Of a DNA stretch of 64,000 nt, positions 4,180-13,973 are shown one piece after another. Each line of letters opens with the position of its first letter. The first letter of the stretch is position 1. The stretch is from Candidatus Latescibacterota bacterium (GTDB lineage: Bacteria > Latescibacterota > UBA2968 > UBA8231). The stretch spans positions 1,056,001-1,120,000 of the forward strand of contig OZ242005.1 in assembly GCA_965204725.1 (NCBI GenBank), written 5' to 3'. Both the position numbers and the translations under genes were made by a program. The notes below the pieces were generated by a model. The model was not told the origin of the DNA. It worked only from the letters and a program-made list of their open reading frames with translations, and made no database searches.

Positions 4180-5196
4180 ATGGTAATGGCTGAGACAAAC
4201 GTCGTCGATGCAGTGTTGAATGCGGAAGAGGGGGTCGCGCCGGTACTCTACCTGCCCAACGGCCAGCGGCTGGTGTTCCCCGGTTGCCACGCCAAACACG
4301 TGTCGGCGACCGAGATCGAGACGTACGAAGGGCGCTTTGAGTATTGGCACGGGCCGACCGAGACCTTGATCGTGTCCGATGCCGACGCCCGCATCGTCAG
4401 CGGCGACCACGAGTTGCCCGGGCAGTATCTGGCGCAGCTCGCCCAACAGCTCGCCGATGAGTGCGGAGCGCACTTTATCGCGTTTGGCACGACGAGTATC
4501 TGGCGGCTGGACGCCCAAGGGCACTACGAGGGGATCATGCGGCCCGATCAATGCGTCTATCTGCGTCCGCAGGAGGCCATATTGCCGGATCGCCAAGGAC
4601 TAAAACTCGGCGTTCACACCCTGCCGGATGTGGTTTTAGAAGTCGATCACACCACGGACATTCGGCGGGGGAAGCTGGGGCTGTACGAGTCGTGGGGGTT
4701 CCCAGAGTTGTGGGTGGAGGTGCCGGACGCGTACACGCCGAATCGGCTGGCGGGTTCGCCGGGGCTGACGATTCGCGTGTTGGAGGAGGGGTGCTATCGG
4801 GAAGTGGATGAGAGCCGGGCGTTTGCGGGCTGGACGGCGGCAGAGATTCACGCAGCCCTAAACGAGCGGACGGGCTGGTCGGCGGCGACGACCGCGGCTT
4901 TGGTGCGGGTGGGGCAAGCCCTGACGGCGCAGTTGGGCACGGCCGGCCCGAAGGGAACCCCGCGGCTGTGGCGACACCGCGCCGAGGGGCGGCGTGAAGG
5001 TCGGCAGCAGGGGTACACCGAAGGCGAGCGAGCGATGTTGTGCCGTCTAGCCGCTCGGCGGTTCGGCGGCGAGGTGGCTGCGAGCTTGGAGATGCTGTTG
5101 GCAGGCTTGGCGAGCGAGGACTTAGGAGACGTGGGCGATTGGATATTCGAATGCGCGAGCGACGAGTTGCTGCGGCGGGTGCGCGCGAGGCGCTAG
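4180..5196 (+). CDS. Uma2-family PD-(D/E)xK endonuclease with DUF4351/Rpn-like tail
   Basis: RPDQCVY, PDVVLEVDHT and KLGLYESWGFPELW motifs; tail EGRREG...LAARRFGG. Confidence 0.8.
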   Translation: MVMAETNVVDAVLNAEEGVAPVLYLPNGQRLVFPGCHAKHVSATEIETYEGRFEYWHGPTETLIVSDADARIVSGDHELPGQYLAQLAQQLADECGAHFIAFGTTSIWRLDAQGHYEGIMRPDQCVYLRPQEAILPDRQGLKLGVHTLPDVVLEVDHTTDIRRGKLGLYESWGFPELWVEVPDAYTPNRLAGSPGLTIRVLEEGCYREVDESRAFAGWTAAEIHAALNERTGWSAATTAALVRVGQALTAQLGTAGPKGTPRLWRHRAEGRREGRQQGYTEGERAMLCRLAARRFGGEVAASLEMLLAGLASEDLGDVGDWIFECASDELLRRVRARR

Positions 5197-5728: not shown

Positions 5729-7108
5729 TTAGCCCTCCTGCCTGAGCCGGTCCAGCAGGCGGCCGAGTTGCCCCACCAAGTAAAGGGGCAGTGAGAGCAA
5801 GGTCATTTCCACAGTCTGCTGCGTTCCGCTTACTCGGTGCCGGATGGACTGGACGGTGGGCGGATTGAGATCGAAGCGCACTGCGAGGCGCGTCCCTTTG
5901 GCCGCGGCGAACTGATGCAGCGAGCGCAGGGTGCCGCTGGTGCCCGCTTTGACTTCGACCGGCACGATCCAAGTTCCCCGAGCCAGCGCGTAGTCCACTT
6001 CGGCGTTGGTGCTTTTCCCTTCCCGCAACCAGTAGTTCAGACGGGGCGTCTCCCGCCCCTCTTCCAAGTAGAGCAGGTGTTGCCCGACGAACTGTTCGGC
6101 CAAGGCTCCTTCATTGACCAGCCGGCGATCGTCCAAGTCTTTCAGAGCCAGCCAGTCTAGGCCGCACAGCCGGTTCATTAGGCCGATGTCCAAAAAGAGG
6201 AGTTTGTAGGTTTTCCAATGGACTTCGGCGTGGAGGGGCACCCCGGAACAGGCACTGTGGAAGACGGGTGCAATGACCCGGGCCTTGGTTAGCAAGTCAA
6301 TGGCGACGCGCAGTTCGCGGGCGGTCTCCTCGCGGTGGATCTCGGTGTATTTGACTTTGCGACCCACGGCTCGGGGGACGTAGTTGAAGACTCGCTGCAA
6401 GCGCAACCGGACTCGGGCGGAGGCGTACTTGGCAAAATCGTCTTGGTAGGTATCGACGATGGACTGATGCACGGGCCGCACATCGGCAAAGCAGCGGGTG
6501 GAGCTATACGCGGCCACGGCTTCGGGCATCCCCCCCACCAACAGGTACTCCCGCTGATAGGCCAACAGGCGGGTGTGGACGGCATGGGGCAAGGGCTGCT
6601 CAAGGGCGTAGCCTTGCAGATAGGCCAACAGGGGCGGGTCCAGTGCGGCGAGGAATTCCTCAAAGCTCATCGGGCCTAGATGGAAGTATTGAATGCGCCC
6701 TACCGGCATGGTAAAGGCGTGTTGCGAGAGGACGAATTCGAGTAAGGATCCAGCGGCGATGACCGGCAGCTCGGGGTGGTCTTCCCAGAAGTAGCGCAGG
6801 GCGGGCAGGGCGTGGGGGGTTGCTTGGATTTCATCGAGGAAGAGTATGCTGCCCGATGCCAACAGCGGTTGGCCCAGCAGCCCTTCGAGTTCTTGGCGGA
6901 TGTGCGTCAGGTCCAAGGTTTGGAAGACGGATTCCAAGTATGGGTGGCGCTCGAGGTTGACTTCGTTGAGGCGCAAGCGCTGGGACTGGGCGAATTGACG
7001 CACTAGGGTGGATTTGCCCACTTGGCGGGCGCCGCGGATGACCAGCGGTTTTCGCTGTGGGGCGGCAAACCATTGGGCCAGCGCACGTTCAGCCGTTCTA
7101 TTTATCAT
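5729..7108 (-). CDS. AAA_14 + DUF4143 ATP-binding protein
   Basis: GARQVGKST, FLDEIQ, GGMPEAV, EVDY..PVEVKAG. Confidence 0.9.
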   Translation of the reverse strand: MINRTAERALAQWFAAPQRKPLVIRGARQVGKSTLVRQFAQSQRLRLNEVNLERHPYLESVFQTLDLTHIRQELEGLLGQPLLASGSILFLDEIQATPHALPALRYFWEDHPELPVIAAGSLLEFVLSQHAFTMPVGRIQYFHLGPMSFEEFLAALDPPLLAYLQGYALEQPLPHAVHTRLLAYQREYLLVGGMPEAVAAYSSTRCFADVRPVHQSIVDTYQDDFAKYASARVRLRLQRVFNYVPRAVGRKVKYTEIHREETARELRVAIDLLTKARVIAPVFHSACSGVPLHAEVHWKTYKLLFLDIGLMNRLCGLDWLALKDLDDRRLVNEGALAEQFVGQHLLYLEEGRETPRLNYWLREGKSTNAEVDYALARGTWIVPVEVKAGTSGTLRSLHQFAAAKGTRLAVRFDLNPPTVQSIRHRVSGTQQTVEMTLLSLPLYLVGQLGRLLDRLRQEG

Positions 7109-7116
7109 AATGAATA

Positions 7117-7165
7117 AAAATGCCCCCTTTTTCGTACGTATAATGTACAAAAAAGGGGGCATTTT
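7117..7165. promoter_or_regulatory. 21-bp inverted repeat (putative operator) upstream of DUF4143 ATPase
   Basis: AAAATGCCCCCTTTTTCGTAC-GTATAAT-GTACAAAAAAGGGGGCATTTT; 20/21 match, 7-nt loop. Confidence 0.65.
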
Positions 7166-7257
7166 ACAATCTTTTTGGCCACAAGGCCTAGATTGATCTC
7201 AGGGTACGAACTGGTTAGCTTCCTAGTCAGGACAATTTTGAATTCGGAGAGGTTACT

Positions 7258-7518
7258 ATGAATAGATCGTGGCAGGTACAAGAGGCTAAGGCGCGGTTTA
7301 GCGAACTCCTTGAGGCGAGCCTTGCCGAAGGGCCGCAAATCGTGACCAAACGGGGCGTAGAAACGGCGGTGCTGGTGCCCATTGACCAATGGCGGCGATT
7401 GGAGCAAATGAGCCAACCTACGCTGAAGCAGTTGCTACTCGCGCCCGAACCGCAGGCCGATATCCCGATACCACCTCGCCGCAGGCACCGTCATCGTCCA
7501 GCGTCGAGTTTTGAATGA
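7258..7518 (+). CDS. Phd/YefM antitoxin
   Basis: WQVQEAKARFSELL...GPQIVTKRG; overlaps PIN gene. Confidence 0.92.
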   Translation: MNRSWQVQEAKARFSELLEASLAEGPQIVTKRGVETAVLVPIDQWRRLEQMSQPTLKQLLLAPEPQADIPIPPRRRHRHRPASSFE

Positions 7519-7924
7519 ACAGATGTATCTTCTCGATACCAATGTCGTCTCGGAGACGCGCCGCCCCAAGCCCAATAGGGGGGTGCTAGACTGGCTGACC
7601 AGTGTGCCCGACGAGGAACTCTACATCTCCGCAGTGACGATTGGAGAACTTCAGGCGGGCATCGAGATCACGCGCGAACAGGATGCTGCCAAGGCAGCAG
7701 AATTAGAATCTTGGCTCGACGAGGTACTCGCTTCGTATAGCGTATTGGTGCTGGATGCGGCAACCTTTCGAGCGTGGGCGCGGCTCAAGCATCGGCAGTC
7801 AGATACCCTAATGGAAGACGCCTTGATCGCGGCCACTGCCGGAACTCATAGGCTGACCGTCGTAACCCGTAACGTTGGCGACTTTGCCCAACTCGGCGTA
7901 CAGGTACTGAACCCGTTCCAGTAA
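7511..7924 (+). CDS. vapC: VapC PIN-domain toxin
   Basis: YLLDTNVVSE, DALIAATA, VVTRNVGDF. Confidence 0.92.
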   Translation: MNEQMYLLDTNVVSETRRPKPNRGVLDWLTSVPDEELYISAVTIGELQAGIEITREQDAAKAAELESWLDEVLASYSVLVLDAATFRAWARLKHRQSDTLMEDALIAATAGTHRLTVVTRNVGDFAQLGVQVLNPFQ

Positions 7925-8123
7925 ATGATCGGTTGTTCGCGCTAATTCAAAACACAATGCTCGACACCGCTTTGGAAATCAGTGCCAGCGCGATGGAAGA
8001 CATGCCGACCAATCCCATCCCGCACGAATAACCTGCCAAGAGAATCGACGCGTAAGCCCGCCAGTGCGCCACGTCAAGCGTAGCCCATTAAAAAATTCTT
8101 GCAGAAACGTTTTAGAAAAATTT

Positions 8124-8152
8124 TTGACAAAATAAATTATTATCAGTATCTT
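8124..8152 (+). promoter_or_regulatory. sigma70 promoter of HTH-GTPase gene
   Basis: TTGACA-17 nt-TATCTT, overlapped by an imperfect inverted repeat (AATAAAT..TCAG / CTGA..ATTTATT). Confidence 0.65.
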
Positions 8153-8193
8153 TGCTGAAACATTTATTTATCTTACAACTAAGGAGGTATAGC

Positions 8194-10335
8194 ATGACCG
8201 CTGAAATGGGTAAGTACTTGGCCCACCTCAGGGACAAAGCCGGTCTCAAGCAGAATGAACTGGCCCAGAAAGTGACGTGGAGCCCGGCAGTTCTCTCCCG
8301 CGTAGAATCGGGAGGACGGGATGTGTCCACCGAAGAGTTGAACTCTATCTTGGAGGCAATCGGCACCGAGGAAGCCCTGCGATTTCGAGAGACCGTCGGG
8401 CGCGTTTGGCAGAAGTTGCAGAAGCCACCGTTCGGACACCCCGACGAGTCGTTTCTTTGGGAAGCAGAGCAGGCACTCCAGAGCGTAGAAGAGCTTTCGG
8501 CAAGGCCGGACATCAAGAACGTATTTGTGAAGCGCTTGGAAGAATTTCATGATGAACTCGACAAAGCTGCCGAGCTCGTCTTGGGAACAGAGCACAGCGT
8601 CGCGTTCGTCGGAGACATTGGCGTAGGGAAATCCACAGCTATATGCCGCGTAGCTGACCTTGAGGTGCAAAAAGAGAATAAGGTTGATCCCGTGCTTGAA
8701 GCAGGTGGGGGTGGAGTAACCGTATGCGAAGTCCATCTCGTGCAGGGACCTCACTACGGGCTCGTCGTCGAACCTATGGACGAAAGCGAGCTCCGCAGAG
8801 AAGTCCTTGAGTTCGCGTCTTTCCTCAGGCATTCCCCAGAGGAACATCAAGAAGAGGAAACAGGGGATCTAGATGCTCACGGGACCTCAAAAGAGATAGA
8901 GCGTGCAATCCGAAACATGAGCAGGCTTACTAAGAAAGTCAGCAGAAAGACGGGACCTGATGGTAAGAAGGTACGGGTGTCCGTGGATCCCGCCGAGGAT
9001 CTGGCTGAGAAATTCTCAGCCTCGAATGCGCTTGCCGTAGAAATCTTGGAGCGAATGAGGCTCCAAAAGAGGACAAGGCGAGAGCTATGGCTCTCCGAAG
9101 CCTCCAGCGAGGACCCGCTGCTGTGGTTGAAGAAAAATTTTGAGCAGGTGAACAACGGGAGGCATCCCGAGTTTTCTATACCAAAGCGCATCGAGATCTC
9201 TGTGCCCCAACGAATTCTTGAGGAGGAAGCACTGTCCATCCGCATGGTGGACACTAAGGGCATTGATCGGACAGCCGAACGCCGGGACTTGGAAGAACAT
9301 TTCAATGCCCCTAATACGATTGTGGTCCTTTGCTCCTCCTTTAACGATGCGCCTTCAAACTCGGTGCAACAGCTATTGGAAAGGGCGGAAAAAGGACGGG
9401 TTGCTAACTTACAGGACAAGGCCGCAGTGCTGGCGTTGCCACGACCCGACGAGGCCCTTGCTGTGAAGGATGATGAAGGGTTTAGAGCCGAAACCGTGGA
9501 CGAGGGGTATGAACTCAAAGGGGACCAAGTTGAAATGCGCTTAGAAGCACTGAATGTCTCCGATGTGCGCGTCGAATTCTTCAATGCGCGTGAAGATGCA
9601 CCTAAACGCCTCAGTGACTTTTTGTTGAAATTGGTCCATGGTCTAAGGAAAAGGCACCGTGAAAATCTTGAGGAGGCGATAGACGGTGCCAATCATCTGG
9701 TGCAAAATTTTGAAGAGAAACAGGTCCAAGAGATACAGCAACAGGCAGCCAGACGCCTGAGCGTATGGCTAGAACACAATCAGCAGATCGGCCACTTCTC
9801 CAAGGGCTTACAGGATAGCTTGCTCGCGGCCATCGCAAGAGCACATGCGAGTTCTTTACGGGCAAGCGTTCGTCGTCAAGGAGAATGGTACAACCTTGAT
9901 TATTCTCACCAACTCGACAACGGTGCCCGAGTGGTGGCCGCAGGTGCTGTGGGAGCCAAACAAGATAAACTCGAGGCGGTTACTGATAATCTCCTCCAAA
10001 ATAGTGATTTCAAGGAGGCTTTCGACCTAGTGCGTCAGGCCCGCCGGATTCTCAAGTCTGGAATCGACGATCTTCTTTGGAAGAGCCAACTGTTGGGAAG
10101 GACAATCCATACTAGGGATATGATGCCCGATGGACAACTCTGGAATAAGTGCAACGAGGAATGGGGCGGAGGTTCAGGGTATCGTGATCGGGTATTGAAG
10201 CACCACCGAGATTGGTTTGCTGATGGCAGCCACGCCATCAATGCACAGGCACTTGTTGAACTTGTCGAAAAGGAATGGCGGGAAATCCTGAATCGTCTAG
10301 CGGCTATTCTCGACTTCAAGGAGGACGAGGAATGA
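8194..10335 (+). CDS. XRE-type HTH fused to dynamin-like P-loop GTPase
   Basis: ATG after AAGGAGG; HTH LRDKAGLKQNELAQKVTWSPAVLSRVESG; G1 GDIGVGKST, G2 GGVTVCE, G3 VDTKG; long helical C-terminus. Confidence 0.75.
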   Translation: MTAEMGKYLAHLRDKAGLKQNELAQKVTWSPAVLSRVESGGRDVSTEELNSILEAIGTEEALRFRETVGRVWQKLQKPPFGHPDESFLWEAEQALQSVEELSARPDIKNVFVKRLEEFHDELDKAAELVLGTEHSVAFVGDIGVGKSTAICRVADLEVQKENKVDPVLEAGGGGVTVCEVHLVQGPHYGLVVEPMDESELRREVLEFASFLRHSPEEHQEEETGDLDAHGTSKEIERAIRNMSRLTKKVSRKTGPDGKKVRVSVDPAEDLAEKFSASNALAVEILERMRLQKRTRRELWLSEASSEDPLLWLKKNFEQVNNGRHPEFSIPKRIEISVPQRILEEEALSIRMVDTKGIDRTAERRDLEEHFNAPNTIVVLCSSFNDAPSNSVQQLLERAEKGRVANLQDKAAVLALPRPDEALAVKDDEGFRAETVDEGYELKGDQVEMRLEALNVSDVRVEFFNAREDAPKRLSDFLLKLVHGLRKRHRENLEEAIDGANHLVQNFEEKQVQEIQQQAARRLSVWLEHNQQIGHFSKGLQDSLLAAIARAHASSLRASVRRQGEWYNLDYSHQLDNGARVVAAGAVGAKQDKLEAVTDNLLQNSDFKEAFDLVRQARRILKSGIDDLLWKSQLLGRTIHTRDMMPDGQLWNKCNEEWGGGSGYRDRVLKHHRDWFADGSHAINAQALVELVEKEWREILNRLAAILDFKEDEE

Positions 10336-10369
10336 ACGCAACTCTCCGTAGTCGGCGTTGTTCTTAGCC

Positions 10370-10646
10370 TAGAAGCTATCTCATAAATAGTCTGGCCGTG
10401 CTACGTTAGTGGTATTCCCTTTCGGAGGTATCTCTTATGGATCGTACCGATGACCAGTGGTCGATCGTGTCCCCGCTGCGGCCGGCGTGTCCCAAACGCC
10501 GCGATGGCCGGGGTCGTCCTTGGCGTTGTAACCGGGCGGTGCTCAATGGTATTCTGTGGATTCTCCGCACCGGGGCGCCTTGGCATGACCTGCCTGATCG
10601 CTATCCGTCCTACCAGACCTGCCATCGTCGATTCCAACGGTGGTCG
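10370..10646 (+). mobile_element. IS5-family transposase 5' fragment (DUF4096), interrupted
   Basis: ORF from 10437: TDDQWSIV...[37 protein letters not shown], cut at the IS4 end. Left boundary approximate. Confidence 0.85.
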
Positions 10647-11330
10647 CTAAGTACACGACAGTAACATGTGTTCATATTGTCGTGCGTATTTAGGTTGTTC
10701 TTGTGCTTGATGTATGATTTGGGTGAGTTGGTCGAGTCCTCGTCGCCACAGGCTGATGGCTCTTCGTCCGTGTTTTTTTATGGGGCTGGGTTTTGTCTGC
10801 TGGAGTTGTAGTCCTACCAGCAGCGTCCACAGGAGCGTCCACGCGAGCAGCCCCAGCAGCAAGGGCAAGCGTTGGGGGTGGGTCCGATGAGTATCTTGGC
10901 GGTTAAATCCTCTCGATTTCAAACACGCAAAGGTGGTCTCAATCGTCCAGCGTTGTCCATAGAGGGTTCGCACCTGCTTTAGGTCGGTTCGGTTGGTGAT
11001 CAGCAGGATGGGTTCGCCGTGGGCGGGACGATGACAGACCAAGTTCACGGTCACGCCGCCGTAGAGGGTGGTCTGAGGGTAATATCGGGTGGTGTTTTGG
11101 GGCATTCGCGCATTAAACGTCGCGCCATAGCACTGCCGCCCATCTTGGAGGGTCCGCCGGGTGTTGCCGTGCAGACGGATAACAAAATCGACCGCTTGCT
11201 CCTGTAGAAAGGTCCACCACGCTCGCCCCATACACTCGCGGTCAGCGCCCAGACAGCACATCCTTCGGTCGAAGTAGGACAACACTTGGGTTAGCAGGTG
11301 CTTCCGTTCGGCGGTGTTGGAGTTGCCCTA
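10647..11330 (-). mobile_element. IS4-family transposase 3' fragment (pseudogene)
   Basis: GNSNTAERK, ADRE, YGQRWTIETTFACLKSRGF, ends LLSCT*; N-terminal part missing. Confidence 0.85.
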
Positions 11331-12765
11331 TCTGAACGGCGAGTTGCCGTAACTCGCTATCAGTCAGGCTCGGAATCGGCACCTTAACGGCCCCCGCCAC
11401 CTCAAGAGGCTCCAAGTGTTTACCGGGCTGACTCAAAACGATCAGTGTGCTGCCAAGCGGTAGATCTAGGGCCGCAAGTGCCTCGGCCAGTGTGAAGGAC
11501 GGATCAATGGTTGGCGATCTACCGCTGACATGAGAAACGCGAGTAACGTGGTCTATCCCATCGACCACGAGGGCGACACGGTGATCGGGCTGCTTCCTGA
11601 GTGCTGCAACGACAGTTTCCTCAAGTGCCTCCTCATCGACCGCAAACCTTGGCCGCTGCTTGGAAACCAGTTCTGGGTCAGATTCGGCGATTCGTCCAAG
11701 GAGACTCCCGAATACTGACTCTGTAAGAACGCGAGGGAGCCGTTCCCCATCCGCGTCGCCGAGGTAACAGTAATGCTCTGCAACGAGCCATTCCTTGTTT
11801 GAAAGACTGTTGATCATTTGCTGGCAAATCCAAGACTTCCCTTGTCCTGGTGGACCCACGAGCAAGATGACTTTCCCCGCGGCGGTCGCTGTAGCCGCCT
11901 GTTGAACTAGTTTGGCCACGGTCCTAGAGCGCGATACCTCAATGGTTTGATCAACTGGATGGGCACGGACGACCGCGCCGAAGTCGCTACGGAGTTGAGC
12001 CCGACGCAGTAGTTCCGATGTGGTGACAGTCATGGAACCCTGCCGTGCGATGCGGGCAGACCTGATGAGAGCCTCAGCAACATCGACAGCCGATCTGTCT
12101 GCATTTGGGTACATCCCCGCGCCGACTTCGGTCTGGACGCGTTTGAGCAACAATTGCTCTGCCGCACCCGGTTCGGTCAGATCCAAGCTCGCAGCTGGCG
12201 CATCAAGCTCAACGACGAGGCGTTCACAAACCCAATCTAGATCTGGACGTTCAACGGCTCCTTGGATAAAAACAAAAGGCTTAGCTGCCAAGTCGCTGAG
12301 TTCTTCCCAGAGAGCATCGGCACGGAAGCGCATACGTACGCTGTCCATTCTAGGCAAAATTGGGCCAGGGTCAGGATTCGCCGGTTCAAGAACCGCGAGT
12401 AGCCGTGCGTCGGTCGGCGGTGCGTCGCGCAATACGATTCGGAAAGAAAATCCCTTGGCTTGAATTCCCGGTCCATCTCGATCTGCAAGCACGGTCGAAA
12501 TTACACGATCCAATCGAAGACTACGTGCATCACTGGTGAATGTCGCCAGCGTCAGGGCTTGATCGGCATTATCCGTATGCTTGATTTGTATGCGCTCCCG
12601 ACAGCCTGTTTCATCCACAGTGGTCAGGTCATCAAATCTGTCGTCCGGTACCAGTTTCTCGTCAACACGGATATTCACGATTGATCCAAGCATGACATCT
12701 ACTAGCCGTGTAGCTACCAGCAGATCCTGATACTCGTACCCTCGATAAGCAGATGTTAGTGCCAC
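11331..12765 (-). pseudogene. Truncated Avs-like protein: PD-(D/E)xK nuclease + STAND/NACHT ATPase, sensor region lost
   Basis: RGYEYQD...RFDDL...RIQIKH; Walker A GPPGQGKS, Walker B LVVDGIDH; reading frame runs into IS4 sequence at ~11330. Confidence 0.7.
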
Positions 12766-12896
12766 GGTTTTAAATAGACGTTGGTTAGAAGTGAAGTGAA
12801 ACCCTTTGGATAGCAGGATAACACCGCGTCCAAGGTGCGTCGGTACAGAGCCGCATGCGGCTGCGGTACTGTTCCTCCTAATACCTTACACCTAAC

Positions 12897-13973
12897 TCAG
12901 TACACCCCCACCACCACGGACTCCTGCAACTCCGTCAGCAGGCGCAGGTCTTTGACGCCGTCCCAAGGATAGGCATCGATGGGCGCGGCGCGTTCGGCCT
13001 CGTCGCGCTCGAGAAAGCGGGGCATGAAAAATTCCTTGGTCAGGGTGGTGAGCATGACTTGGCCGGTCTCGCCGTAGCCGACTTTGCGCGCGGGATCGCT
13101 GGGATCGACCAGCTCGATGACGGCGCGGGGCTGCGGCGGGTAGTAAGTGATGGCGTACTCGTCGGCCGGGTCAAAGGGCTTGGGGCAGGCGAGGCCCATC
13201 AGGGTGTTGCCGTAGGTGGGCACAAAGGCGAGGCCGGGCACCAGCTCCTCGCGGGCGAAGCGATGGAACTGGGCGTTCATCTCCGTGCCGCCGCAGAAGA
13301 CGCCCTTGATGCCCAGCTTGGGCAGGGAGACTTTTTCGCAGAGGGCTTCGAGGAGCCGGGGGGTGGTGAACACGCACTGCACGTTGTCGTGAGTCTTGAG
13401 GATTTTGAGGGCCTGATCGACGATGTGGGCCTTGTAGGCTTCTAGCTCTCGCATCTGGCCGGCGCGGATGAGTTCGTTGACCCAGCGCGGGTCGAGATCG
13501 ACCATGAAGCACAAGCCGCCGCGGTGCTGGGCCAAGTACTCAATGGCGAGGCGCAGGCGGCGCGGCCCCGAAGGCCCCAGCATCAGCCAGTCGGCCCCCT
13601 GAGGAAAATCCGCCGCGGACAGGCTCTCGCTGTAGAGCGCGTAGTCGGTTTGGAAGTCGCGGATGTTGATGCGGTATTTGGGCAGGCCGGTCGAGCCGCC
13701 GGTCTCAAAGACGTAGATCGGCTCGTCGGCATACGCTTGGGGAACCCACTGGCGCACCGGGCCGCCGCGCAGCCACTCGTCCTCAAAGTGGCCGAGCCGG
13801 GCCAAGTCGGCGTAGGAGCGAATGTGCTCGCGGGGGTCGAAGCCGAGCCGCTGGGCGTAGGAAAGCCAAAATGGGCAGCCGGTCTCCGGGCTGAAGTGCC
13901 ACTCGACGATGGCGCGGACGTGGGCGTCAAGGGCGGCGCGGGCGGCCGCGATCGCAGCGGGCGAAACGCTCAT
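12897..13973 (-). CDS. EhpF/phenylacetate-CoA-ligase-like adenylate-forming enzyme
   Basis: ETGGSTGLPK loop, GGTEM, YGNTLMG, RFLERD; ATG 13973 overlaps the upstream stop. Confidence 0.75.
   Translation of the reverse strand: MSVSPAAIAAARAALDAHVRAIVEWHFSPETGCPFWLSYAQRLGFDPREHIRSYADLARLGHFEDEWLRGGPVRQWVPQAYADEPIYVFETGGSTGLPKYRINIRDFQTDYALYSESLSAADFPQGADWLMLGPSGPRRLRLAIEYLAQHRGGLCFMVDLDPRWVNELIRAGQMRELEAYKAHIVDQALKILKTHDNVQCVFTTPRLLEALCEKVSLPKLGIKGVFCGGTEMNAQFHRFAREELVPGLAFVPTYGNTLMGLACPKPFDPADEYAITYYPPQPRAVIELVDPSDPARKVGYGETGQVMLTTLTKEFFMPRFLERDEAERAAPIDAYPWDGVKDLRLLTELQESVVVGVY

Follow-up and report, generated by a model that had tools for sequence, protein, structure and literature searches.

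The window analysed here is a 64,000-nt stretch of contig OZ242005.1 from a Candidatus Latescibacterota bacterium (forward-strand positions 1,056,001 to 1,120,000), and all coordinates given below count from its first nucleotide. The open frame at 8152-10335 on the plus strand is a real gene, hereafter HTH-dynamin, whose product almost certainly joins a helix-turn-helix (HTH) domain of the XRE type to a soluble dynamin-superfamily nucleoside triphosphatase (NTPase) that consists of neck, large G domain and helical stalk. The likeliest start codon lies six bases past the ribosome-binding site, and the homologues share the same start point. The gene and its parts are as follows.

8124-8152 (+): sigma-70-type promoter, TTGACA at 8124-8129, 17-nt spacer, TATCTT at 8147-8152; 10/12 positions match
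8181-8187 (+): ribosome-binding site AAGGAGG
8194-10335 (+): HTH-dynamin gene, 713 aa plus stop, likeliest start ATG 8194
8203-8382 (+): XRE/Cro-C1 HTH (Pfam HTH_31), residues 4-63, recognition helix S30-PAVLSR-36
8428-8589 (+): linker and N-terminal neck helices, similar to a bundle signalling element (BSE), residues 79-132
8590-9588 (+): large G domain, residues 133-465, with P-loop G140-T148, T176 and D353-G356
9589-10332 (+): C-terminal neck helix and all-helical stalk, residues 466-713

Gene and protein architecture

The promoter is assigned from where it lies and from the operator evidence presented below, because the promoter scan as a whole barely exceeded the expectation from shuffled sequence (2 sites found, 1.8 expected). 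The gene has a GC content of 52.8% and a third-codon-position GC content (GC3) of 0.57, compared to 61.8% GC across the window and a GC3 of 0.86 in a backbone transporter gene. The low-GC stretch spans about 7000-13000, and the 154 bp preceding the gene have only 36% GC. The HTH-dynamin gene is a horizontally acquired one.

The HTH domain is readily recognized by Pfam, both as HTH_31 at residues 4-63 (E 1e-12, 48.6 bits for a cut-off of 27) and as HTH_3 (35.3 bits for a cut-off of 23). A family-profile search of PDB sequences returned HTH proteins alone at E<=1e-3, C.BclI among them. Since sequence profiles catch only the HTH or fall below their threshold on the rest of the protein, membership in the dynamin superfamily rests on fold and motifs.

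The AlphaFold model, built from an alignment of 44 family members, reached a predicted local distance difference test score (pLDDT) of 87.2 and a predicted template modelling score (pTM) of 0.72. It shows a small helical head spanning residues 1-67, then a linker, a pair of long helices (85-130), a domain of mixed alpha/beta structure (133-465) and an entirely helical C-terminal half (470-706). When the model was compared to the PDB with Foldseek, the rows listed (ranks 1-49, with gaps) all belonged to the dynamin superfamily, namely Campylobacter DLP (5oxf, E 6e-10), SynDLP, BDLP, IniA, mitofusins, Fzo1, MxA and MxB, Drp1 and dynamin. VIA-align gave Z-scores of 17.4 for mitofusin-2 (296 residues, root-mean-square deviation (rmsd) 5.7), 16.2 for IniA, 16.1 for the SynDLP minimal G domain (326 residues, rmsd 5.0) and 14.8 for BDLP, and full-length alignments with SynDLP (488 residues), dynamin 1, Drp1 and MxB take in the stalk as well. 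In a Foldseek-independent search of 48,161 representative chains, the top 11 rows were ten dynamin-superfamily entries and EHD4 (Z 17.1 to 13.4), followed by Ras-like and translation GTPases (Z 12-13, about 160 residues aligned), and LeoA (4aur) scored Z 11.4.

We examined the conservation of the catalytic motifs in 119 representatives of at least 590 aa, taken from the best 150 of an exhaustive search of 50%-identity representatives. In the P-loop, G140-D-I-G-V-G-K146-S-T148, G140 is kept in 119/119, and G145 and K146 each in 118/119. The G2 switch-I residue T176 is present in 118, and in the G3 motif, D353-T-K-G356, D353 is invariant (119/119) while T354 and G356 are kept in 118 and 117 sequences, respectively. 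The G4 site, following the strand at 410-415, reads P-R417-P-D419-E and not the canonical [NT]KxD; at position 417, 73 of the 119 sequences have R, 21 have K and 13 have Q, and at position 419, 36 have D, 32 have G and 15 have E. EHD ATPases also belong to the dynamin superfamily. The G domain further includes a family-specific insert of about 150 residues (approximately 197-345). Two cysteines, unusual among dynamins, are found in this domain: C178 (8725-8727), in a T-x-C-E-V stretch after switch I, is kept in 111/119 sequences, and C380 (9331-9333), in the strand after G3, in 116/119.

The stalk contains conserved Trp- and Gly-rich loops, which include W565, W650 and G658, and the Trp and Gly residues W650, G658, W674 and W695 are near-invariant among the 119 representatives. 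We observed no hydrophobic segment resembling a transmembrane helix or a membrane paddle: the highest Kyte-Doolittle mean over 19 residues is 1.15 and falls on the P-loop strand, and the stalk has none. An amphipathic or loop-based contact with lipids may nevertheless occur. A complex prediction with two copies of residues 79-513 scored 0.00, which tells neither for nor against binding.

The initial annotation of this DNA, made from the letters alone, had described an intact 713-aa gene with a strong promoter and ribosome-binding site, a GC content below that of the backbone, a Cro/XRE HTH, G1-G3 motifs, a dynamin-like fold and a long helical stalk with no obvious transmembrane segment. These features are all borne out by the frame and the agreeing starts of the homologues, the base composition, the HTH_31 match, motif conservation in 117-119 of the 119 sequences, two structure comparisons that both rank the dynamin superfamily first, and the helices and low hydropathy of the stalk; for the promoter and ribosome-binding site, it is the 10/12 matches and the AAGGAGG that agree, the scan itself being near the shuffle level.

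Promoter palindromes and the N-terminal head

Recurring palindromes were observed in the 110 bp upstream of 71 family genes. These loci were separated into clade 1, with at least 38% identity to the window protein (45 loci), and clade 2, below 38% (26 loci). AACGTT occurs within 150 bp upstream in 33/45 clade-1 loci and in none of the 26 clade-2 loci, with 55 occurrences in clade 1 for 0.86 expected from the rest of the same loci; when identical upstream regions are removed, it is still found in 32/44. Conversely, CATATATG is found upstream in 15/26 clade-2 loci and in 0/45 clade-1 loci. The consensus of 53 sites is a 10-bp palindrome, G[A/C]AACGTT[G/T]C. Neighbouring clade-1 sites are spaced by 11, 21-23, 31-33 or 42 bp, which places them on one face of the helix, and the clade-2 operator type, GCATATATGC, has a spacing of 31-32 bp. 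The sites peak 40-70 bp before the start codon, i.e. over the -35 and -10 elements. Three such sites are predicted in the window.

8104-8113 (unstranded): predicted operator site 1, GAAACGTTTT (GAAACGTTT at 8104), upstream of the -35 element, one base off the consensus
8115-8124 (unstranded): predicted operator site 2, GAAAAATTTT (GAAAAATTT at 8115), 11 bp from site 1, abutting or overlapping the -35 element
8157-8166 (unstranded): predicted operator site 3, GAAACATTTA (GAAACATTT at 8157), just past the -10 element, close to where transcription should start, 42 bp from site 2

Site 2 is the weakest of the three, with AA in place of the central CG, and the 11-bp spacing between sites 1 and 2 recurs at other loci. 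Matches to GAAANNTTT number 13 in the 64 kb, three of which lie within 62 bp around the promoter. Three loci outside the motif discovery show the same patterns. L084, which encodes a protein with 72% identity to the window protein, has CG-type sites upstream of the -35 and past the -10 elements and carries GAAACGTTTT at the position matching site 3 of the window; L085, from the genus of the window (34% identity), has GCATATATGC; and the Sphingopyxis plasmid locus L083 has ACATATATGT.

The type of palindrome follows the recognition helix of the protein. The helix T-W-S-P-A-V-L-S-R goes with the CG-type operator and L-D-Q-S-R-V-S-R goes with GCATATATGC. A further helix, F-T-A-S-R-V-S-R, is found at four loci (L048, L049, L050 and L053), and a third repeat, GCAC...GTGC-like, was read by eye upstream of L048 and L049. 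Because a phased promoter palindrome covaries with the recognition helix, the head, as a dimer or larger oligomer, most likely occupies the predicted operators and represses the gene that encodes it. From this sequence evidence, autorepression of HTH-dynamin is very probable. The initial annotation had proposed an autoregulated or DNA-sensing protein, and the evidence favors the former term of this pair. The probe it suggested for an electrophoretic mobility shift assay, 8130-8168, takes in just one of the three predicted sites (8157-8166). The covariation of operator and recognition helix is newly described here.

The second feature that informs on the function of the family is the variability of its N-terminus. 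Among the best 150 representatives, 115 have a complete body, of which 86 carry the HTH, 23 are headless and 6 have another N-terminal domain. A TIR_2 head is found in P0259 and P0263 (Pfam, E about 1e-19) and a SAVED head in P0250 (Pfam, E 8.6e-7, 29.3 bits for a cut-off of 26.2). By BLASTP, the proteins with TIR or SAVED heads match residues 72 or 82 to about 676 of the window protein at 30-31% identity (E 2e-76 and 9e-79), so the swap junction is the linker after the HTH, at residues 72-82. Three other proteins, P0162, P0167 and P0256, have N-terminal domains of 68-188 residues in the head slot with no Pfam match. Other members carry a Schlafen/AlbA_2 piece before the HTH, or a C-terminal sigma-70 region 4 (P0147) or zinc finger. 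A metagenome scan with P0259 for the context of TIR-headed forms gave two marginal loci (E 4e-4), which were not used.

TIR and SAVED are hallmark immune domains. Their occurrence on the family body is the strongest single argument that this body works in conflict systems. The TIR head suggests a body that would act as a scaffold activating an effector, and the SAVED head a body that would itself be the effector. These TIR and SAVED swaps on the family body are newly described here.

Distribution and genomic surroundings

The family is large. A word-indexed search gave 1155 proteins at E<=1e-3 among 8000 scored candidates, and the 120 matches listed are mostly about 710 aa long (a few are 535-682 aa) and 53-96% identical; where these have a public name, it is only 'helix-turn-helix transcriptional regulator'. 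The exhaustive search of 50%-identity representatives gave 1040 clusters at E<=1e-3, of which 703 reached 1e-10 and 297 reached 1e-30. Species-representative genomes yielded 158 confirmed relatives; 80 loci were retained. The hosts include Chloroflexota, Alpha-, Beta-, Gamma- and Deltaproteobacteria, Actinomycetota, Planctomycetota, Acidobacteriota, Cyanobacteria and others.

The window genome has a single copy. In the 40 related genomes searched, a match was found in only 1 of 24 same-genus genomes, belonging to the other clade (34% identity), and in 2 of 12 genomes of a second family, one being 72% identical and the other a degraded remnant. Nineteen plasmid records carry the family gene, nine of them conjugative, and one plasmid copy adjoins DUF262, RelE/HigA and an Eco57I-type methylase. 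The family had no match in 50,697 phage genome records. This patchy, cross-phylum and plasmid-borne occurrence marks the gene as accessory and horizontally mobile. Copies that are broken or carry internal deletions were observed in L004, L046, L057 and L086 (genome G029), with pieces of 259-376 aa; in the G029 copy, the N- and C-terminal ends are about 500 bp apart with a TGA inside. Since such copies occur in several genomes, the gene is lost as well as gained. A search for fused forms longer than 1248 aa found none, although this search is weak evidence.

In a protein-language-model atlas, the whole protein falls in clusters named 'XRE family', and the body alone lies near unnamed HTH-less clusters and cyanobacterial clusters partly annotated with Dynamin_N. 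A separate Bacillota cluster (score 0.87) has Dynamin_N in all members and HTH_3 in 88%, indicating that the HTH-dynamin arrangement also exists in a Pfam-recognized family. Residues 80-713 also score 0.96 to clusters of the 'virulence effector SrfC' (PF10139), which suggests that SrfC proteins may share the dynamin-like build of the family body; PF10139 was unmatched on the window protein in the Pfam scan. A full-text literature search returned no description of an HTH-dynamin fusion or of this family, and supplementary tables may list it.

In the window, the gene is surrounded by the following features.

4180-5196 (+): 338-aa open reading frame (ORF) with a weak Uma2 match (putative restriction endonuclease fold; E 5.9e-5, below the gathering score)
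5729-7162 (-): AAA_14 and DUF4143 ATPase, 477 aa, matching the PADLOC candidate single-gene system PDC-S01 (E 1.8e-147)
7258-7924 (+): independent toxin-antitoxin pair, Phd/YefM antitoxin 7258-7518 and PIN/VapC toxin 7511-7924
10437-11285 (unstranded): IS5-type transposase fragments, DUF4096 N-terminal part 10437-10664 (+) and DDE_Tnp_1 C-terminal part 10647-11285 (-)
11242-12765 (-): STAND-type NTPase, 507 aa, with NPHP3_N and AAA_16 matches

The PDC-S01-like ATPase is another defence-candidate resident of the islet. The two insertion sequence (IS) fragments overlap by 18 bases, an intact transposase is absent there, and they lie between the HTH-dynamin gene and the STAND NTPase. About 280 N-terminal residues of the latter have no domain match and little sequence follows its NTPase domain; its 3' end runs up against the IS debris, so that a truncation is possible. 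PADLOC gave no match for it at E<=1e-8, and a search of the 40 related genomes did not find it.

To describe the surroundings of the family, ORFs were called with a simple longest-first routine, and the family gene was located in 77 loci and the window. Clustering of the 692 ORFs within five genes gave N6-adenine methylases as the commonest neighbour family, at only 7/78 loci. No conserved partner was found, and we conclude that the gene stands alone.

Domain scans were restricted to neighbours of at least 110 aa within three genes. The Pfam scan covered 187 proteins of L002-L054 (13 duplicates from L032-L034 were excluded), and the PADLOC scan covered 134 proteins, corresponding to 3 window neighbours, 42 Pfam-less neighbours and all 89 neighbours of L054-L081. 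By our own tally, a recognized restriction or defence protein lies within three genes at 25 or more of the 77 loci; these include the following.

L058, L060, L027: type I restriction-modification (RM) system directly downstream
L015, L040: MmeI
L002, L016: Eco57I-type methylase with PLD-SNF2 helicase
L010, 12818-16224: REase-TIR-APAZ and short prokaryotic Argonaute (pAgo), SPARTA-like by PADLOC, directly downstream
L026: KAP/QatB/QatC
L060, L061, L063: Gabija
L075: BrxABC
L041: BilD
L020: PIN-TPR-GreABC
L069, L078, L080: PDC candidates

The pAgo pair of L010 belongs to a conjugative element that also encodes a relaxase and a coupling protein, and conjugative or integrative elements are found at L010, L031-L034 and L040. 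Only toxin-antitoxin pairs were seen at L019, L022 and L054. At three or more loci (L022, L041 and L054), HipA, alone or with HipB, is encoded divergently upstream of the family member. HTH_3 genes occupy the -1 position in L013, L022 and L054, the last being an HTH-less form adjoining HipB.

PADLOC matches are more frequent among near neighbours (21/89) than among far ORFs of the same 25 loci of L054-L081, at least 5.5 kb away (11/106), with a Fisher p of 0.019 that overstates the enrichment, because related loci are not independent. The reading of the gene as a single-gene unit, proposed in the initial annotation, agrees with the absence of any neighbour family beyond 7/78 loci, and its defence-like islet, with enrichment near defence genes, holds by association only. 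It had also placed the gene between a toxin-antitoxin pair and an Avs-like gene; the pair is there, as Phd/YefM-VapC, whereas the Avs-like part stands only partly, the gene being a STAND NTPase that is separated by IS fragments and has no PADLOC match.

Probable defence role, related systems and alternatives

Taken together, we propose that HTH-dynamin is a soluble, single-gene, self-repressing dynamin-superfamily NTPase that was horizontally acquired and acts in defence against phages or mobile elements, a combined statement to which we assign a probability of roughly 0.6. A defence role for the family as such is likely, judging from its head domains and gene neighbourhoods. In the resting cell, a low and self-limited amount of protein would sit on its own operator. 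A trigger derived from infection would then drive nucleotide-dependent self-assembly of the dynamin body, and this assembly would both execute the defensive act and strip the protein off its operator, such that more is made. The defensive act could be the trapping or remodelling of a phage structure, as proposed for Mx, or an action on membranes, as for DynA and Eleos. The same body with TIR or SAVED instead of the HTH would fit a shared immune scaffold with an exchangeable head.

The closest structural relatives are of the BDLP type, including Nostoc BDLP (2j68/2j69), Campylobacter DLP1/2 (5oxf/5owv), SynDLP (7zw6/9em9), IniA (6j72), MFN1/2 and Fzo1, which share the neck helices, the large G domain with G1-G3, the return helix and the helical stalk (Z 13.4-17.4 over 270-490 aligned residues). 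Nevertheless, sequence identity is just 9-15%, and the window protein is below threshold for Dynamin_N, lacks the paddle or transmembrane segment, and has an extra XRE HTH, the insert of about 150 residues in the G domain and a degenerate G4. Moreover, the HTH-dynamin gene is accessory and transferred, not housekeeping.

Among antiphage systems, Eleos/LeoABC is similar in that dynamin-superfamily proteins occur in defence islands, and P-loop mutations abolish defence by Eleos (Millman et al. 2022, bioRxiv 10.1101/2022.05.11.491447, dynamin passages). According to the same passages, the Eleos operon has two or three dynamin-like genes in succession, whereas HTH-dynamin is a single gene with a single genome copy, and an HTH, present in the window protein, is unmentioned in them. 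Of the PADLOC LeoA and LeoBC models, only LeoBC gave a match, at residues 84-149 (E 0.0055, 13.9 bits). We therefore rejected an identity with Eleos/LeoABC, given the single gene, the unmatched PADLOC models and the Z-score of LeoA, which is below the BDLP and mitofusin rows. DynA of Bacillus subtilis is also a dynamin-superfamily protein with an anti-phage effect; as described in parts of Guo et al. 2022 (PMC8844932), it is a housekeeping, two-headed, membrane-binding protein that delays lysis, in contrast to HTH-dynamin, which is accessory, single-headed and HTH-bearing with no predicted membrane element.

The animal Mx proteins (MxA 3szr/4p4s, MxB 4whj) resemble HTH-dynamin in being soluble, with a G domain, BSE and stalk (Z 13.7-16.1). 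They differ by the absence of a DNA-binding head, and there is no evidence of direct descent. Mx proteins are antiviral through viral structures, not membranes, as stated in the dynamin passages of 10.1101/2022.05.11.491447. By analogy, we hypothesize that HTH-dynamin may use an Mx-like mechanism.

The head itself recalls the C proteins of RM systems, CapH and antitoxins, which have XRE-type HTHs and palindromic operators on their own promoter, and the PADLOC HTH, 'control protein' and capH models match residues 5-59 of the window protein. These are separate small regulators, whereas in HTH-dynamin the head and the large NTPase, its presumed target of regulation, form one protein. Another comparison is with the DO-GTPases, TRAFAC-class GTPases proposed as switches of conflict systems, with TIR among the associated effectors, and described in the corresponding sections of Kaur et al. 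2020 (PMC7159879) as having a conserved GAP1 partner, often paired paralogues and a Walker B glutamate. Membership in this group was rejected, as HTH-dynamin has no GAP1 or other conserved partner and its G3 D353 is invariant (119/119), in place of the Walker B glutamate reported in those sections.

The public label 'helix-turn-helix transcriptional regulator', the housekeeping neighbours at many loci and the sigma-70 region 4 at the end of the homologue P0147 would suit a non-immune, signal-responsive transcription factor, in which the NTPase is a sensory or oligomerization module and the HTH controls its own gene and, in trans, genes of the host. We consider this unlikely, since no conserved target gene is found nearby, the patchy distribution across phyla and plasmids is a poor fit to a host regulon, TIR and SAVED stand in for the HTH on the same body, and defence genes are enriched among the neighbours. 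It is distinctly unlikely that the protein is a DNA-sensing or DNA-anchored dynamin whose HTH recognizes the DNA of invading phages or plasmids, or keeps the NTPase attached to DNA for an action on nucleic acid, with binding to its own promoter being incidental. DNA contact clearly matters to most members, 86 of the 115 complete representatives having the HTH fused to the NTPase, and the protein is without a membrane-binding element. However, the conserved palindromes lie in phase on each gene's own promoter, over the -35, -10 and start regions, and they change with the recognition helix between clades, which is expected of co-transferred self-operators and not of a sensor of conserved phage sequences; in addition, 23 of the 115 members are headless and others have TIR or SAVED.

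Type Ia ParA proteins are NTPases that carry an HTH at the N-terminus and act as repressors of their own operon, and by analogy the family might serve the maintenance or competition of mobile elements, i.e. the stability or exclusion of plasmids and integrative and conjugative elements (ICEs), rather than phage defence. The 19 plasmids, nine of them conjugative, are consistent with this possibility, as are the relaxase and coupling protein at L010, the ICE genes at L031-L034 and the recombinases or integrases at H1 and L040. Nevertheless, it appears very unlikely, given that there is no ParB-like partner or conserved neighbour, that the small 19.9-kb Sphingopyxis plasmid has its own ParA beside its replication gene, and that most copies are chromosomal, in islands of defence genes. 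Least probable by far is a housekeeping membrane-remodelling dynamin of the BDLP, DynA or IniA type with a mere regulatory head. Although the top structural matches (mitofusin, IniA, SynDLP and BDLP) are membrane-active, the hydrophobic paddle or transmembrane segment is absent, the gene is accessory (1/24 same-genus genomes) and foreign in base composition, and degraded copies occur in several genomes (L004, L046, L057 and G029).

Several observations weigh against our proposal of a self-repressing defence dynamin. The defence role of the family is a prediction from its genes and their neighbourhoods, and for approximately a third to half of the related loci the neighbours are only housekeeping or unannotated (for example L007, L008, L011, L028, L036, L038, L047, L049, L051 and L052). 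The neighbour tallies come from a crude, greedy ORF caller, from single hidden Markov model matches that are not system calls, and from loci that are not independent. PADLOC has no model for the family beyond the HTH, with only the marginal LeoBC match, and NCBIfam likewise gave nothing above cut-off and has no model beyond the HTH. Dynamin_N (PF00350) remains under its gathering score (17.9 bits for 27, E 0.0034). The G4 motif is degenerate, such that 'GTPase' is likely but the base specificity is unreadable, and the protein may not be specific for GTP. Concerning the operator, each of the three sites in the window is imperfect, being one base off the palindrome, 10 bp is a short palindrome for a classical XRE dimer site, and the exact core motif is missing in 12/45 clade-1 and 11/26 clade-2 loci, several of which carry the minor variants GAAATATTTC or GAAAGCTTTC. 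What the TIR head suggests about the role of the dynamin body is the opposite of what the SAVED head suggests. Finally, we infer the trigger, the assembly and the defensive act by analogy with Mx, DynA and Eleos. The initial annotation was largely right, and what emerges is a soluble, single-gene, self-regulating dynamin-like candidate with an exchangeable head.

A bolder idea, which we advance tentatively and regard as doubtful, is that the family might be a bacterial counterpart of Mx-type immunity, in which a soluble dynamin scaffold with an exchangeable N-terminal slot would assemble on a phage-derived structure. The HTH head would couple assembly to de-repression, making a self-amplifying sensor and effector in one polypeptide, while a TIR head would lead to NAD+ destruction and a SAVED head to control by a cyclic-nucleotide alarm. 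In this picture, the resting oligomer would be stored on the helically phased operator arrays.

Animals (Mx) and bacteria (Eleos, DynA) have few immune modules in common. Dynamin-like proteins are one of these, and their antiviral mode is unclear in both groups. The predicted operator and the head swaps of the present family are direct handles on mechanism, assembly could be followed through a simple enzymatic read-out in the TIR-headed relatives, and the family is easy to clone, since it consists of a single gene. It is large, spans many phyla and is absent from the PADLOC and NCBIfam profile libraries that we scanned. If it protects against phages, it would represent a widespread system missed by the current defence-finding profile libraries.

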